Part shown: in pieces, positions 21,801 through 45,226 of the stretch
How the letters are laid out: each line of letters begins with the position of its first letter
How positions within the stretch are numbered: the stretch's first letter is position 1
Assembly (NCBI GenBank): GCA_017939755.1
Contig: JAGBAJ010000016.1
Location: 16,302 to 80,301, forward strand
Source: Clostridia bacterium
Lineage (GTDB): Bacteria > Bacillota > Clostridia > TANB77 > CAG-508
Direction: 5' to 3'
DNA: 64,000 bases
The notes under the pieces: model-generated
Databases searched by the model: none
What the model saw: the letters and a program-made list of their open reading frames with translations, nothing else
Told to the model about the DNA's origin: nothing
Made by a program: the position numbers and the translations under genes

Positions 21801-21971
21801 ATGGAAAAATTTTTGAACAAAAAAGTTTCAGTTATTACGTGTATGGGAGGAACATATGGAGCAGCAGATTTTTATAAGGGTGTGTTTACTTCATATGATG
21901 ATAATTTTATTTGTTTAAATAATAAGACATATATTGCAATAAAATATATTATGACAATAGATGTAAAATAA
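21801..21971 (+). CDS. 56-aa small protein, member of the Sm/Hfq-like-patterned paralog family (P1)
   Basis: Own translation gives MEKFLNKKVSVITCMGGTYGAADFYKGVFTSYDDNFICLNNKTYIAIKYIMTIDVK, with a GGAGG RBS and a terminator directly downstream. It is too short for the ORF track. It is a clear paralog of 52079-52246. Confidence 0.6.
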   Translation: MEKFLNKKVSVITCMGGTYGAADFYKGVFTSYDDNFICLNNKTYIAIKYIMTIDVK

Positions 21972-21978
21972 TAAAGGG

Positions 21979-22012
21979 AGAATGTAGAGCTAAAGTTTCT
22001 ACATTCTTTTTA
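21979..22012 (+). terminator. rho-independent terminator
   Basis: GAATGTAGA...TCTACATTC stem followed by T5. Confidence 0.7.
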
Positions 22013-33242: not shown

Positions 33243-33357
33243 AAATCCCAAACTCTATTATTAGAAAGAAAATGATATAACATCCTTAAAACACTTAACA
33301 GCAAAGAATCTAAACTAATTAAAAAGATAAAAATAAGAAAAGAAGGAACAAATAAGT

Positions 33358-33392
33358 AGGACAGATAATAAGTTGAAATTATCTGTCCTTTA
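33358..33392 (+). terminator. hairpin terminator candidate after 31914-33242
   Basis: AGGACAGATAAT-AAGTTGAA-ATTATCTGTCCT is a perfect 12-bp stem followed by a weak TTTAAT. Confidence 0.5.
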
Positions 33393-34137
33393 ATATATAA
33401 TCGTAACAAAAGATAGTAATTTATCGCTAAGATTAGTTAGAAATATTGAAGAAAAAGATATATAGAGCGTTGTTGATATTCAAATAAATGGAGAGAAAAC
33501 AGCATATAAAGGAATAATTGATGAAATATTTGAAATTACCACAAATGATGCACTTCTTGTTGTATGAGATAAAAGACAAGGAATTGTAGTAGTAAATGTG
33601 TTGGAGTAAATGATTTTATTGAGGGAAAAAATAGAAAGGAGAAGTAACTATGGAATTTGTAAGATTAGAATATAATAATAACAAATTAACTAATGCAGAA
33701 TTAAAAGGTCATGTTAAATAAAATATCAAATAGATGTCCGTAATCAAATATATAATATCAAAAAAGTTATAGAGAGTATCTTAAGGTTTAGTACATATGA
33801 CTTTGAACTAGATGAGTCTAGAAGTGATGATATAAAAGAAATTACAACAGCAAAAGTAAAACAGGCATATAGAATCGTGAATAAGCCATGTATAGCATTG
33901 ACATTATTTTTATGTAAAATATCCAGGAAATTTAGCAACAAAAATTCGAGGAATTGATAGAAAAGAAAAATGGTCTGATTTATAGTATATATTCAAGCAA
34001 GATCACTTTGAGAAAACTCTTGTTGAAATGGATAGTATGGAAAGGGAGGCACGAAGAAAAAACTGATGGTTCAGTAGAAGCATTAAAAGTAGTACCATCT
34101 TTGAAGATGTTAGGTGGGAAAGAAAAGAGGAAAAAAT

Positions 34138-39293: not shown

Positions 39294-39420
39294 AGCGTTA
39301 TTAATTTATCGAGATAATATACTCGGTAGTTAATTTCATCTGGTTTGATATTCAATTTTGGTCAGTGATTGAAGTCAATGAAGTTGATATGTAATCTAAA
39401 TAAAATTGGAGGTGTTCTTC

Positions 39421-39813
39421 ATGTCCGATGACAAAAGAGCTGAGGCAAATACCAAGAGCAAAATCAATTCTACTTCCGTATATTTGAATCCAATTAGGAC
39501 GTATCGGTATGTAGTTCCCAAAGAGGTGTGTCCTTTGGACGTAATGGCAACAATGGGGGATAAGCTTGAAGAGGCTTGGGTGTATCTGAGCACAGAAGCA
39601 CTCAACAAGCTTCAGGAAACTGGAGAATGTTCTTTCGTGGACGGCGGGTTTTCTATGGAGTGGCCTGCAACGCCCGAATATCCTAGAACACAGTTGGTGG
39701 TAAAAAACGATTCTCCTTGTTGGTGGTCGGTTGTAAGCATAAGGGCATCAGATATTCCGTATGCGGATTGGGTAACAAATCCAAAGACAATTATCTTTAT
39801 CACTGTGGAATAG
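39421..39813 (+). CDS. hypothetical protein (G+C-rich cassette c)
   Basis: ORF 39406-39813 with the start moved to ATG 39421 (GGAGG RBS). MSDDKRAEANTK...PCWWSVVSIRASDIPYADWV. G+C is markedly higher than the flanks. I recognise no family. Confidence 0.55.
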   Translation: MSDDKRAEANTKSKINSTSVYLNPIRTYRYVVPKEVCPLDVMATMGDKLEEAWVYLSTEALNKLQETGECSFVDGGFSMEWPATPEYPRTQLVVKNDSPCWWSVVSIRASDIPYADWVTNPKTIIFITVE

Positions 39814-40143: not shown

Positions 40144-41649
40144 ATGGCAAAAATACTAAATGATGTATCAAGAACATTTAACGAATTTTTATTACTACCA
40201 AATTTAACAGATGAAAGATGTATACCAAGCAATGTAACATTGAAAACACCACTTGTAAAATTTAAAAAAGGAGAAGAACCGAAATATTCTGCGAACATCC
40301 CATTTGTGTCAGCTATAATGCAAGCCGTTTCAGGAGAAAAGATGGCTATTGCTTTGGCGCGCGAAGGAGGATGTTCTTTTATTTATGGTTCGCAATCAAT
40401 AGAAGACGAAGCAGCGATGGTTAGAAGAGTAAAAAGGCACAAAGCTGGATTTATAGAGAGCGATTCAAATGTAAAAAGTGGAACACCTATTAAAGAAGTA
40501 ATTGAACTAGTAGCAAGAACAGGACATTCAACTGTAATGATAACAGAAGATGGAACAAGCAATGGTAAATTTTTGGGATTAGTAACAGATAAAGACTACA
40601 GAATTTCAAGGGTTAATGAAAATGATCCTGTTGATATGTACATGACTCCAAAAGATAAGGCTATTACAGCTAAAAAAGGAATTAGCCTAATAGAAGCAAA
40701 TGATATTATCTGGGAGCACAAAATAAGCTGTTTACCAATTTTAGATGAAAATGATAATTTAGAGCATTTAGTATTTAGAAAAGATTATGAAGAAAGAAAA
40801 AATAATCCAAATTCATTATTAGACGAAAATAAAAGATACATAGTTGGTGCAGGAATCAATACAAGAGACTACGCAGAAAGAATACCAGCATTAGTTGATG
40901 CAGGTGTAGACCTAATTTGTATGGATTCATCAGACGGATACTCTGTATGGCAAAAAAATACAATAGACTGGGTAAGAGCTCACTATGGAGATAGCGTAAA
41001 AATAGGAGCTGGAAATGTAGTTGATAAAGAAGGATTCTATTACCTAGCAGAAGCAGGAGCAGACTTCATAAAAGTAGGTGTTGGCGGAGGTTCAATTTGT
41101 ATTACTCGTGAGACAAAAGGAATTGGACGTGGACAAGCAAGCGCTCTTATGGATGTTGTAGAGGCAAGAGATGAGTATTTTGAAAGAACAGGAATTTATA
41201 TTCCAGTATGCTCTGATGGTGGAATTGTACATGATTACCACATAACACTATCACTTGCTATGGGGGCAGATTTTGTAATGATGGGAAGATATTTTGCAAG
41301 ATTTGATGAAAGCCCAACAAGAAAAGTAAAAATAAATGGAAACTTTGTAAAGGAGTATTGGGGAGAAGGTTCAAATCGTGCTCGTAACTGGGAAAGATAT
41401 CTAGAAGACCCAACAAAGAAAAAATTAGCATTTGAAGAAGGTGTAGATTCATACATTCCATATGCAGGACCATTAAAAGATAATTTAGCAACAACAATAT
41501 CAAAAATAAAATCAACAATGTGTAATTGTGGTTCAATATCTATACCAGAATTGCATGAAAAAGCAAGATTAACAATGGTTTCAAACATTAGTATCAAAGA
41601 AGGCGGAGCACATGATGTAATGTTAAAAGAGGTAACAACACAAGACTAA
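40144..41649 (+). CDS. guaB: IMP dehydrogenase
   Basis: TIM-barrel with a CBS pair insert, catalytic loop [12 protein letters not shown] and C-terminal GGAHDV. Confidence 0.93.
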
Positions 41650-41749
41650 TTTTAAACTAGGGACGGGGTTAAATTTAAAAAAACTTAAATTAGGGACACC
41701 CCTTGACTTGTTAAAAGTGTGAAAGAATATATTTCATAGGAGAAAAAGT

Positions 41750-42082
41750 ATGTTAATAGATAAATATAAAGGAAAAAATGTCAAAATGTTGGTTAGCTCA
41801 AATTCTGGAATTGGAATAGCAAGAGCAGGAGAATATTATGGAGAAAGTATGACTTCTTCAATTATTGTTATTATTGGAAATATAAAAGATTTTGATGATG
41901 AGTATGTAGAATTAAATAAATGCCAAATTTTGCGTACAAATGTACATGATAGAACTAACGCTAATGAATTAGGAATAAAAGACAATAATGGAGACTTGCC
42001 AAATGTAAAGCTATTAGAAAACTTTTCTACATCATTAATAAGTAAGAAAAACATAATTACGATTTCATTAGTAGAAGAATAA
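41750..42082 (+). CDS. 110-aa small protein, Sm/Hfq-like-patterned paralog family (P2)
   Basis: MLIDKYKGKNVKMLVSSNSGIGIA...GNIKDFDDEYVELNKCQIL...KKNIITISLVEE with an AGGAG RBS. Confidence 0.65.
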   Translation: MLIDKYKGKNVKMLVSSNSGIGIARAGEYYGESMTSSIIVIIGNIKDFDDEYVELNKCQILRTNVHDRTNANELGIKDNNGDLPNVKLLENFSTSLISKKNIITISLVEE

Positions 42083-42132
42083 ATGTAGTCAAAGGAAAAT
42101 TTCAATAATTAAAGACTAGAGGAGGAAAAAGT

Positions 42133-42441
42133 ATGTTATTAGATAAATATAAAGGAAAAAATGTTAAAATATTGGTAAGTTCGAATTCTGGAACAGGAAC
42201 AGGAACTGCAACTGGAGGAAATACTTTTTCTACTGTTGTTAGTTCGGTATCTTCTGTTATTGTATACGGAGGAATAATAACCGACTATGATGACAACTAC
42301 ATTGAAATAAGTAATGTTAAAATTTTAAGACCAAATACATGGTATTATAGCGGAAATGGTGAACCGACTAGAGTCGAAGAATACAATCAGACAATAATAT
42401 CACAAAAAAGTATAATTTCGATTTCTGTTATTGAAGAATAA
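42133..42441 (+). CDS. 102-aa small protein, Sm/Hfq-like-patterned paralog family (P3)
   Basis: MLLDKYKGKNVKILVSSNSGTGTGTATGG...GGIITDYDDNYIEISNVKIL...QKSIISISVIEE with a GGAGG RBS. Confidence 0.65.
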   Translation: MLLDKYKGKNVKILVSSNSGTGTGTATGGNTFSTVVSSVSSVIVYGGIITDYDDNYIEISNVKILRPNTWYYSGNGEPTRVEEYNQTIISQKSIISISVIEE

Positions 42442-42459
42442 TTTATAGGAGGAAAACAA

Positions 42460-42742
42460 ATGTTAGAAGAATTTAGGAATAAGAAAGTAAAAATATTAGT
42501 TGGGTCAAATTCTGGTGTAGCAATTGGTGCTGGGCGGAGCGATAGATACAGCGATAATTAGAATGCTTGGAATTATTACAGATTATGATAATGAATTAAT
42601 AAAATTAAGTAATGTGGAAATGATAAGTGCAAATATGGCAGAAATTGGATTTGCTGGAGGGTTAAATCATAGAGTAGAAAAAGCTAGCGTGTCATTAGTA
42701 AATAGAAAAAATATTTTAACTATTTCTTTAGTGGAAGAGTAG
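42460..42742 (+). pseudogene. third tandem paralog (P4), split by a 1-nt frameshift
   Basis: ATG 42460 (GGAGG RBS) gives MLEEFRNKKVKILVGSNSGVAIGAG and then a stop at 42559. The adjacent frame continues GGAIDTAIIRMLGIITDYDNELIKLSNVEMI...RKNILTISLVEE. The shift maps to the GGG run at 42532-42534. Confidence 0.6.
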
Positions 42743-42839: not shown

Positions 42840-44378
42840 ATGGAAAATAAAGAGCTAATTTTAATAATTGACTTTTATGGTCAATACAATCAATTAATAG
42901 CTAGACGTGTACGTGAATGCAATGTATATTCAGAAATAGTACCATTCAGTACACCAATAGAAAAAATAAAAGAAAAAAATCCAAAAGGAATAATATTTAC
43001 AGGAGGACCTGCAAGTGTGTATGCAGAAAATGCTCCAAAATGTACAGAAGAAATATTTAACTTAGGTATCCCTGTTTTAGGAATTTGTTATGGAATGCAA
43101 CTTATGACACATATGCTAGGAGGAAAGGTTCAAAGAGCAGATAAAAGAGAATATGGCGTTACAAGTGTAAATATAAATAATAATTCAAAATTATTTACTG
43201 GGTTTGAAAAGTCAAATGATTTCTTAATGAGCCACACAGATTTCGTTGAAGTACTTCCAGAAGGATTTGAAAATATAGGATCAACGCCACATTGTCCAAA
43301 TGCTGCAATGCAAAATACTAAAAAGAATTTCTATGGAATTCAATTCCATCCAGAAGTAAATCACTCACATAGAGGAACAGAAGTTATAAGAAACTTTGTA
43401 TACAATATATGTGGATGTACTGGAACCTGGAAAATGAGCTCATTCGCAGAAGAAACCATAAAAGCAATCAAAGAAAAGATAGGAGATAAAAAGGCACTTT
43501 GTGCATTATCAGGTGGTGTTGATTCATCAGTAGCAGCAGCCTTAATAAATAAAGCAATCGGTAAGAACTTAACATGTATTTTCGTAGATCATGGTCTTTT
43601 AAGAAAGAATGAAGCGGAAGAAGTTGAAGAAGTATTTACTAAGAATTTCGATGTTAATTTTGTAAAAGTAGATGCAAAAGATAGATTCTTAGGAAAATTA
43701 GCAGGAGTATCAGATCCAGAGCAAAAAAGAAAAATAATTGGAGAAGAGTTTATTCGTGTATTTGAAGAAGAAGCTAAAAAGATAGGAACTGTTGATTATC
43801 TAGTACAAGGTACAATCTATCCAGATGTAATAGAAAGTGGAGTGGGAGCTGGAGCTAAAATAAAAAGTCATCACAATGTAGGAGGACTACCTGACTATGT
43901 AGACTTTAAAGAAATAGTAGAGCCATTAAGAGATTTATTTAAAGACGAAGTAAGAAAAGTAGGACTAGAATTAGGTCTTCCAGAATTTTTAGTATATCGT
44001 CAACCATTCCCAGGACCAGGCTTAGCAATTCGCGTAATAGGGGATATAACAGAAGATAAGCTTACAATATTAAAAGATGCAGATTATATATTCAGAGAAG
44101 AAATAGCTAAGGCTAAATTAGACAGAAATATAAATCAATATTTTGCAGTATTAACAAACATAAAAAGTGTTGGAGTTATGGGAGATGAAAGAACTTATGA
44201 CTATACAATAGCTTTAAGAGCTGTAACAACATCAGATTTCATGACAGCTGAGTGGACAAAAATACCATATGAAGTATTAGAAGTAGTATCAGCTAGAATT
44301 GTTAATGAAGTTAAACATGTAAATAGAGTAGTTTATGATATAACAGGAAAACCACCTGCAACAATTGAGTGGGAATAA
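42840..44378 (+). CDS. guaA: GMP synthase (glutamine-hydrolyzing)
   Basis: GATase-1 ([11 protein letters not shown]), ATP-PPase SGGVDSS and the C-terminal dimerisation domain ...PPATIEWE. Confidence 0.95.
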
Positions 44379-44514: not shown

Positions 44515-44958
44515 TTACTTCACGATAATTCTGCCCTTCTGGACAATAGTAAGTGAAGTTGAATTCATAACCGCAATCGCAGGCTCAACAGAGACTACGT
44601 CTTCCAAGAGCTCCTTATCCTCATCAGGATTGTAGCATCTGGTGTGGAAGCTAAATGCGGAATTAAAATCCACCACTTCTACATCGAATGCCCACATGAG
44701 AGCCTTAAGGCTATGTGTTGAGTACGGGTTAGGGAGTACGGGAAGCTCAGAATCACCAGGGAAAATTGCCTTAACGACAATTACGCTTGCCTGGCGATAG
44801 GGTGCCTTTACGATAGTTTCAGCACAACCACGACGATAATGACTTCCAAATTCGGCAACGTTGTCGTTCTGCTCAAAAATGTTGTCCAAAGCAGAAAGGT
44901 TACCGTTTGCACCCTGGATGATTGCTTCTGTGAGTGCGTGTGATACATTCTTAGCCAT
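44515..44958 (-). CDS. hypothetical protein (G+C-rich cassette d)
   Basis: ORF 44515-45033 with the start moved to ATG 44958 (AAAGGAGG RBS 8 nt upstream). MAKNVSHALTEAIIQGANGNLSALDNIFEQ...147 aa. G+C is markedly higher than the flanks. I recognise no family. Confidence 0.6.
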   Translation of the reverse strand: MAKNVSHALTEAIIQGANGNLSALDNIFEQNDNVAEFGSHYRRGCAETIVKAPYRQASVIVVKAIFPGDSELPVLPNPYSTHSLKALMWAFDVEVVDFNSAFSFHTRCYNPDEDKELLEDVVSVEPAIAVMNSTSLTIVQKGRIIVK

Positions 44959-45098
44959 AATAATGGCCTCCTTTAAGATAGAATTGGTTAACTCCAGCTC
45001 AGGTACATCCTGATTTACCGGATTCTTGACCATTTTCTCAAGACTAGTAACCGAAAAAACGGCTTGCCAGTGGAGAATTAATTCAAAAAAGTTAACCT
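44959..45098 (-). promoter_or_regulatory. structured ~140-nt 5' leader of cassette d (possible riboswitch-like element, class unknown)
   Basis: On the minus strand, GGTTAAC at the predicted 5' end (45097-45091) pairs with GTTAACC (44992-44986). This encloses about 98 nt holding at least three hairpins (AGCCG-U6-CGGUU, UCUUGA-N8-UCAAGA, AUCC-N9-GGAU). The RBS follows directly. Confidence 0.3.
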
Positions 45099-45133: not shown

Positions 45134-45189
45134 ATTATGTAGCTAACTTATGTAAATGAAATCGTTTGAAAAGCAACAAAGAAAAAAGT

Positions 45190-45224
45190 AAAACCGCAAA
45201 CCTGATAAATTGGTCTGCGGTTTT
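45190..45224. terminator. bidirectional rho-independent terminator
   Basis: AAAACCGCAAACC-N8-GGTCTGCGGTTTT with U-tracts available on both strands. Confidence 0.65.
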
Positions 45225-45226
45225 CG

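Follow-up and report, generated by a model that had tools for sequence, protein, structure and literature searches.

Gene content of the locus

The sequence analysed here (the window) is a stretch of 64,000 nucleotides (nt) from the Clostridia bacterium assembly GCA_017939755.1 (contig JAGBAJ010000016.1, positions 16,302 to 80,301, forward strand), with a source GC content of 30%. This report concerns five small related genes in the window: three tandem paralogues (copies A, B and C, together the trio) located between guaB and guaA, and two shorter copies (D and E) located elsewhere. The features concerned are as follows (window positions; aa, amino acids; ORF, open reading frame; RBS, ribosome-binding site; AF2, AlphaFold2; MAG, metagenome-assembled genome).

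21801..21971, + strand: copy D, minimal 56-aa protein with predicted Sm-like fold, monocistronic (ORF with AGGAGG RBS; AF2; Foldseek)
40144..41649, + strand: guaB (IMP dehydrogenase), 5' flank of the trio (501-aa ORF; exact match named IMP dehydrogenase in the NCBI MAG record)
41750..42082, + strand: copy A, long-form protein with predicted Sm-like fold, 110 aa (ORF with RBS; family-profile match; public name hypothetical protein J6J36_01785)
42133..42441, + strand: copy B, long-form protein with predicted Sm-like fold, 102 aa (ORF with RBS; short-form profile match; Sm-like core in the AF2 model)
42460..42742, + strand: copy C, long-form gene of the same family with a 1-nt insertion (two profile matches in different frames)
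42840..44378, + strand: guaA (GMP synthase), 3' flank of the trio (512-aa ORF; the orthologue on contig L001 has GATase, NAD_synthase and GMP_synt_C domains)
51688..52032, + strand: rplW (L23), upstream neighbour of copy E (ORF; orthologues with Pfam Ribosomal_L23)
52079..52246, + strand: copy E, minimal 55-aa protein with predicted Sm-like fold, in the S10 operon (ORF with RBS; between rplW and rplB)
52337..53164, + strand: rplB (L2), downstream neighbour of copy E (ORF; NCBI name 50S ribosomal protein L2)

An initial annotation, made from the sequence without database searches, had described three RBS-led paralogous genes with common motifs between guaB and guaA, and the ORF list and the raw sequence place them exactly where it did. 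An AGGAG-type RBS lies 7-9 nt 5' of the ATG of each gene. The spacers within the trio are 50 and 18 nt, and no terminator-like site was predicted on the + strand of the guaB-guaA interval. Copies A and B are 44% identical (BLASTP, E 2e-21); C is similar to both of them over its 3' part (E ~1e-8) and to B over its 5' part (E ~1e-3). The best-conserved part across A, B and C is the segment that forms strands 4 and 5 in the predicted fold (see below).

The two short copies are 46% identical (BLASTP, E 5e-11), and copy D is directly followed by a terminator-like hairpin (21975-22011). The link between short and long forms is weak in BLAST and clear by profile. A hidden Markov model built from 97 short homologues, without any guaBA-type protein, was run on the six-frame translation of the window; it scored B at 37.7 bits and A at 16.2 bits, and its matches in the 64-kb window were only A, B, both halves of C, D and E. 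The two relatives of 55-56 aa reported earlier at 21801-21971 and 52079-52246 were recovered at precisely those positions, in the same profile family as the trio. A possible sixth, relic copy had been proposed at 33466-33609 and is withdrawn: no profile match was obtained there even at E 100, and no Pfam or Rfam match. The alleged relic lies in an 870-nt stretch (33243-34113) in which ORFs do not exceed 65 aa and which separates the gene of an AMP-binding enzyme from that of a HAD hydrolase; this stretch gave no significant Rfam or Pfam match. In the public MAG annotation, four copies are annotated (J6J36_01700, J6J36_01785, J6J36_01790 and J6J36_01850), each as 'hypothetical protein'.

The spacer between guaB and copy A contains the heptamer TAGGGAC twice, ~35 nt apart (41655-41710). 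This spacer sequence is largely kept in L001 and missing from the much shorter spacer of contig L015. A structured RNA or attenuator in the guaB-A spacer was considered and rejected, as the RNA fold z-score was 0.40 (no better than shuffled sequence). No riboswitch was found at the gua locus at the Rfam gathering threshold.

Reading frame of copy C

Copy C is split: frame 0 ends at a stop at 42559-42561, and the +1 frame runs on to the stop at 42740-42742. The DNA was aligned with that of an intact 96-aa orthologue (P0113, L022:423-713), which revealed one surplus base near 42528-42535 within GGTGCTGGGCGGAGCG. This base falls in the region coding for the variable loop, and the remaining indels relative to L022 are all in frame. 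The gene is read in frame 0 from 42460 to ~42530 and then in the +1 frame; the restored protein (~93 aa) reads ...SNSGVAIGAGGAIDTAIIRMLGIITDYD..., also given as ...GVAIGAGGAIDTAIIRMLGIITDYD.... Because the extra base precedes the frame-0 stop, the frame-0 peptide RSDRYSDN is out-of-frame sequence. The third gene had been correctly recognised as frameshifted and as encoding about 93 aa, but the junction had been set at the frame-0 stop, where the alignment does not put it.

A programmed frameshift at the frame-0 stop was rejected, since the homologous +1 peptide AIDTAIIRML starts ~25 nt upstream of that stop; the intact orthologue, from which copy C departs in the loop region by just one base, argues against it as well. 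The lesion is either a recent pseudogene mutation or an assembly error. An intact third gene is present in relatives (P0113, and a 95-aa gene in L001), and the 3' 69 codons of copy C have a ratio of non-synonymous to synonymous substitution rates (dN/dS) of 0.30. The public MAG record seems to lack an annotation of copy C, judging from numbering only: locus tags and accessions run consecutively from B (J6J36_01790, MBP3707325) to E (J6J36_01850, MBP3707337), in steps that fit the other genes exactly.

Genomic contexts of the family

Few gene orders in bacteria are as well conserved as that of the S10 operon. An E-type gene was present between rplW and rplB in nine of the nine other loci examined. 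Every E-like homologue with a readable contig occupied this slot: P0009 (L005-L007), P0010 (L008), P0011 (L009, L010), P0012 (L019), P0015 (L020) and P0027 (L031-L033), together with L024 and L028, the two loci obtained from a pattern scan of metagenome contigs. Across the lineages that carry this slot, L2 identity ranges from 96% down to 75% and L23 identity falls to 54%. The spacer that follows rplW is 27-46 nt long. E-type genes encode 55-68 aa in an otherwise canonical S10 operon, the 68-aa form being the long-loop variant P0027. The position of copy E in the S10 operon had gone unremarked in the initial annotation, although the copy itself was listed. This position hints at a translation-related role.

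Other members were found in other contexts. The distant member P0043 (68 aa) is flanked by genes for a SpoU/MRM3-type RNA methyltransferase and for YebC/TACO1 (L021:2158-3910), which is another translation-related neighbourhood. A D-like protein is encoded after comEC and a YhcG-type gene, and long forms also occur away from guaBA (P0079).

Two contigs, L001 and L015, have the arrangement guaB-trio-guaA as well; on L022, copies B and C and guaA are present. The guaA genes of these contigs are 91-97% identical to guaA of the window; the trio thus belongs to a narrow group. In L001, a gene for a 162-aa membrane-anchored protein, with the FtsX extracellular domain (PF18075) as its only domain, lies between the trio and guaA (L001:1819-2307); the window has a 97-nt spacer at this place.

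Family size, signature and nearest database families

An exhaustive profile search of 1.84 billion representative sequences yielded 115 clusters at E<1e-3, all from metagenomes and nearly all of 50-100 aa, and a profile search of 5.8 billion proteins yielded 113 matches, all from metagenomes or MAGs and none with a functional name. Word-index searches returned nothing but near-identical sequences, with seven close relatives for copy B and, for copy D, D itself alone. The sample names of the relatives indicate bovine and ruminant gut material. The family is rare and lineage-restricted; the genome studied here is that of an uncultured Clostridia member of the gut or rumen. Contigs were also scanned with the degenerate N-terminal pattern MLEK[FY]LN[KR]KV. 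The three matches in genome contigs comprised a Clostridium match inside an integrase gene and two others in unrelated phyla; two of the seven matches in metagenome contigs were real, both in the S10 operon.

Members start with M-L-E-K-(F/Y)-L-N-K-K-V-x-(I/V), followed by a very variable, Gly/Ser/Thr-rich loop of 11-33 residues between the conserved Val and Gly. The core (h, hydrophobic) is G-x-h-T-x-h-D-D-x-F-I-E-L-D-N, in which the Gly is 100% conserved, then three residues, then I-x-I-K-Y-I-x-x-I. Long forms carry ~25 extra residues after the I-E-L-x-N strand. Three members of ~100 aa (P0081, P0115 and P0118) have an acidic, low-complexity N-terminal extension of ~40 residues, e.g. MSEEKDYDDGSSSAKD..., before the Sm-like core.

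No family in Pfam or NCBIfam claims any of the five proteins of the window at its threshold. By sequence, DUF6897 (PF21838), together with MM0924 (NF041655), comes nearest; its members are likewise ~55-60 aa long. Copies D and E score 19.1 and 12.7 bits against DUF6897 over nearly the full model (cut-off 23.9), and D scores 17.2 bits against MM0924 (NCBIfam cut-off 45). Copies A, B and C gave no match to DUF6897, and the long forms of four genomes gave no Pfam match. Of the 97 relatives scanned, 18 gave DUF6897 matches with E<=0.01; conversely, the family profile recovered P0234, a true DUF6897 protein (32.5 bits), at E 1.4e-6. Since the window proteins score below the curated cut-off and P0234 is recovered, the family is an outlying neighbour of DUF6897. 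The DUF6897 match does not explain the proteins, because DUF6897 itself has no assigned function. The earlier remark that no function had been described for such a family agrees with this result, the nearest families (DUF6897 and MM0924) both being of undescribed function and below threshold. A search of the literature library found no paper that mentions DUF6897 or MM0924, and none on an Sm-like gene between rplW and rplB. Weak single-member Pfam matches to Hfq, LSM and DUF2642 were also seen among the 97 relatives.

Predicted fold

The AF2 model of copy D, computed with the 97-sequence alignment, has a mean predicted local distance difference test score (pLDDT) of 93.8. DSSP assigns a helix at residues 2-4 and strands at residues 8-14, 22-32, 36-39, 43-46 and 50-55. 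The model of copy B (pLDDT 81.4; core >90) has the same N-terminal helix and five bent strands. The variable Gly/Ser/Thr-rich loop lies between strands 1 and 2, and the second insertion of the long forms lengthens the hairpin of strands 3 and 4.

The models were compared with the PDB using Foldseek (TMq and TMt, TM-scores relative to query and target). For D, the best hit was a subunit of the GerQ filament (8zra_A; TMq 0.82), and behind it came dozens of Hfq chains (TMq 0.66-0.69, probability 1.00). For B, almost all matches were Sm/LSm chains (probability 1.00), plus one small subunit of the Mnx complex (9bxa_B). Fold matches in BFVD were all uncharacterised proteins. Because the AF2 models return Hfq (D) and Sm/LSm (B), the Sm-like reading is supported at the level of the predicted fold. 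This agrees with the small beta-barrel of Sm1/Sm2-like layout that had been proposed from the sequence pattern; a barrel is predicted, and no well-characterised family of proteins that do not bind RNA claims the sequences.

Sequence comparisons were less informative. A sequence-profile search of the PDB gave nothing significant; the archaeal Sm protein 1m5q aligned over its full length in the Sm1/Sm2 register at E 2.8 (not significant). In an hhalign comparison with four Hfq sequences, the Sm1 block aligned in the expected register (P 0.003, probability 10%) and the alignment ended before strand 4.

Comparison with Hfq, Sm/LSm, GerQ and Mnx proteins

Hfq (PF17209) has the same predicted fold as the short forms and a similar size. 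Just before strand 1 the family has a basic N-K-K, at the place of the arginine rim patch of Hfq (R16-R19), and its K-Y would correspond to K56-H57 of Hfq in the strand 4-5 loop. The Phe of D-D-x-F (86% of members) and the Lys of K-Y (69% Lys, a further 6% Arg) stand at the positions expected for Hfq F42 and K56, according to a manual motif alignment of which the hhalign result covers the Phe only. Hfq Q8 and H57 are not kept (Leu and Tyr are found instead) and the YKHAI motif is not conserved. Hfq also differs from the family in that the strand 1-2 loop is here long and variable (11-33 residues) and the long forms carry the strand 3-4 insertion of ~25 residues. The window proteins gave no match to the Pfam Hfq model, and one of the 97 relatives did (E 0.0022).

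Among Sm/LSm proteins (PF01423), the best structural matches of copy B were Lsm1-7, the LSM14 domain and SmB/D/F (TMt 0.6-0.78). The family keeps the Sm1 spacing G-x-h-x-x-h-D-x-x-h (Gly in 100% of members; Asp in 73% and Asn in 18% at the right spacing), and long strand 3-4 hairpins occur in Sm proteins too. The Asn position of Sm1 is occupied by Ile, and the Arg-Gly of Sm2 is replaced by Lys-Tyr. No LSM Pfam match was obtained for the window proteins and one for the 97 relatives (E 0.0045). Sm/LSm proteins are eukaryotic or archaeal, whereas the host here is bacterial. By sequence, as far as the profile comparisons go, the proteins belong to neither the Hfq nor the LSM family.

GerQ is a spore-coat protein of Bacillus, 181 aa long, whose N-terminus is Gln-rich and cross-linked. 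Its C-terminal domain (PDB 8zra; PMC11405398), also a small Firmicutes barrel, is the best structural match of D (TMq 0.82, root-mean-square deviation (rmsd) 2.5), but identity in the structural alignment is 10% and the contexts of our family are ribosomal and purine operons. No match to the GerQ family (PF09671) was found among the 97 members scanned.

MnxE and MnxF, the small subunits of the Mn oxidase complex of Bacillus, are paralogues encoded in tandem, like the trio, and assemble into a hetero-hexameric ring. Chain B of the Mnx complex (PDB 9bxa) is among the top matches of copy B, though the match is weaker (TMq 0.53, rmsd 7.5) and the Mnx subunits bind a multicopper oxidase; none was noticed near the five copies in the ORF list of the window or in Pfam scans of neighbouring genes. 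We know of no RNA-binding role of GerQ or of the Mnx small subunits.

Judged from the models, the family belongs to the Sm-like superfamily, as an uncharacterised branch whose genomic setting is unusual. The family differs from known bacterial Sm-like proteins in the variable strand 1-2 loop, the long strand 3-4 insertion, the tandem trios and the fixed S10-operon position.

Selection and divergence

The small genes have dN/dS values of 0.10-0.32 relative to their orthologues, and the guaA, L2 and L23 flanks have values of 0.03-0.14 in the same close-relative comparisons; the small genes are therefore constrained coding genes that change several times faster than their neighbours. Copy A (89% identical to its L001 orthologue) has a dN/dS of 0.32 and copy B one of 0.10-0.15. 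That the ORFs are non-functional, or resemble one another by chance, is effectively refuted by the present data, as the purifying selection in orthologues, the gene order conserved in relatives, the confident fold prediction and the restriction of profile matches to the five loci in 64 kb outweigh the frameshift of copy C and the lack of any Pfam family claiming the long forms.

Sequence comparison suggests three old subtypes (A-like, B-like and C-like), which appear to be older than the split between the lineages of the window and its relatives. In L015 the order of subtypes is rotated (B-C-A). In L001, slots 1 and 2 are ~90% identical to their window counterparts and slot 3 (L001:1132-1437) is 41% identical to copy C. 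The small genes of the window and of L015 are separated by a synonymous divergence (dS) of 1.4-2.0, against 0.52 for guaA in this pair. The divergence of slot 3 and the high dS of the small genes suggest cassette replacement rather than simple vertical divergence.

Proposed role and alternatives

The small genes are genuine and look expressed; they encode a lineage-restricted family of very small, cytoplasmic proteins with a predicted Sm-type fold. The account that we favour, which falls a little short of being probable, is that these proteins form rings and bind RNA or ribonucleoprotein, with a founder in the S10 operon acting in translation and the guaB-guaA trio as a younger, possibly heteromeric expansion. 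Sm-fold proteins generally form rings by pairing of strand 4 with strand 5, bind RNA through pore loops and a basic rim, and provide the classic scaffold of RNA chaperones. By analogy, subunits of the family would assemble into rings through strand 4 of one subunit and strand 5 of the next, and these rings would bind RNA or an RNA-protein particle via the pore loops and the basic rim; from the models, we infer both ring formation and RNA binding.

The gene of 55-70 aa that is fixed in the rplW-rplB slot is the probable founder. It probably acts on the ribosome, rRNA or translation, because it would be co-produced with ribosomal proteins, and its retention in this slot down to 75% L2 identity is a strong pointer to a translation-associated factor. 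The trio would be a younger, fast-diverging expansion. In the manner of Hfq/Sm structures, both variable insertions may lie on the face opposite the helix and form a crown on the ring that could set partner specificity. Mixed rings are plausible because the strand 4-5 segment is the best-conserved part of A, B and C, the spacers are short (50 and 18 nt) and no terminator is predicted; conservation of that segment while the two inserted hairpins vary would fit heteromeric rings in which a decorated face chooses partners. In eukaryotes, heteromeric rings built from co-expressed Sm paralogues are the rule. Bacterial Sm-like rings described so far are, to our knowledge, homomeric. Several Hfq paralogues per genome are present in Bacillus anthracis and Burkholderia; we know of no report of Hfq paralogues as tandem trios. 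More speculatively, the trio might link the supply of GTP to translation or to the control of RNA.

A bolder version can be formulated, which we consider improbable as a whole: in a clade of uncultured Clostridia, the rplW-rplB gene would encode a ribosome-bound Sm-like protein not recognised before (lineage-specific ribosomal or biogenesis factor), and the trio would be the first bacterial heteromeric Sm ring, made of three co-transcribed paralogues with variable hairpin crowns and linking guanine-nucleotide synthesis to translation. If true, a bacterial family with co-transcribed trios of paralogues could serve as a simple model of how heteromeric Sm rings evolve. The DUF6897 neighbourhood, moreover, gains a predicted fold and a contextual lead, and proteins of 6-12 kDa are accessible by gene synthesis despite the uncultured host.

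Several observations weigh against the RNA-binding ring that we favour. Similarity to Hfq and LSM at the sequence level is not significant, and the canonical uracil-binding residues (Sm1 Asn and Sm2 Arg-Gly) are absent. Copies A, B and C are acidic (isoelectric point 5.0-5.8) and E is near neutral, which is atypical of RNA binders. Structurally, D comes closest to GerQ, a protein of spore-coat filaments, and a subunit of the Mnx oxidase complex is among the top matches of B. The insertions of B, modelled as hairpin extensions of strands 1-2 and 3-4, have low confidence (pLDDT 57-66). Finally, one trio member is frameshifted here, so at least copy C is either dispensable or mis-assembled.

Some of these observations would be accommodated by an assembly of proteins only, in which the barrels form GerQ-like filaments or an MnxE/F-like ring that holds enzymes, perhaps organising IMP dehydrogenase and/or GMP synthase. 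The acidic trio lies between two enzyme genes of one pathway in three lineages, and both GerQ (8zra_A, TMq 0.82 with D) and the Mnx small subunit (9bxa_B) appear in the structural searches. Against this, the 10% identity to GerQ is accompanied by no GerQ Pfam match in the 97 scanned members, the S10 operon, which is neither an enzyme nor a spore locus, is the oldest context and the one most widely found, and long forms such as P0079 are also encoded away from guaBA. We regard such a scaffold as unlikely, but as an alternative of some weight.

Small beta-barrels are common among ribosomal proteins, and the S10-operon copy could itself be a lineage-specific ribosomal protein or a stoichiometric ribosome-bound factor, with D and the trio as paralogues that replace or modify it under particular conditions, as happens with alternative ribosomal-protein paralogues elsewhere. 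The fixed rplW-rplB slot with its 27-46-nt spacers after rplW, held across L2 identities of 75-96%, fits this proposal. A ribosomal protein would not be expected to evolve several times faster than L2, L4 and L23, as this one does in most comparisons; its near-neutral charge is unlike that of most ribosomal proteins, and the family is absent from nearly all bacteria. These points make a ribosomal protein improbable, and less credible than the protein-only assembly.

The divergence pattern at the gua locus could also be explained if the trio consisted of fast-evolving conflict cassettes (immunity, antitoxin or anti-phage) lodged between two conserved genes. Whole-cassette swaps would be expected to give the dS contrast between the small genes and guaA in L015 (1.4-2.0 against 0.52) and would be consistent with the slot-3 variant of L001 (41% against ~90% for slots 1-2) and with the insertion of the unrelated FtsX_ECD gene at the same spot. 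Nevertheless, no toxin-like partner is found nearby, dN/dS is well below 1 and the paralogue E resides in a housekeeping operon, so that we hold this explanation to be very unlikely. An origin from phage or defence systems was rejected, there being no PHROG or PADLOC matches and no viral contig with the N-terminal motif.

Other features of the window

No Pfam match at E<=0.001 was obtained for four ORFs (115-172 aa) close to the gua and S10 loci: 39406-39813 (+), 44515-45033 (-), 45148-45495 (-) and 49018-49467 (-). One further feature was identified with Rfam.

14280-14441, - strand: glmS ribozyme/riboswitch (RF00234, 93 bits), upstream of a 611-aa ORF at 12396-14231 (-)

The 611-aa ORF is presumably glmS.

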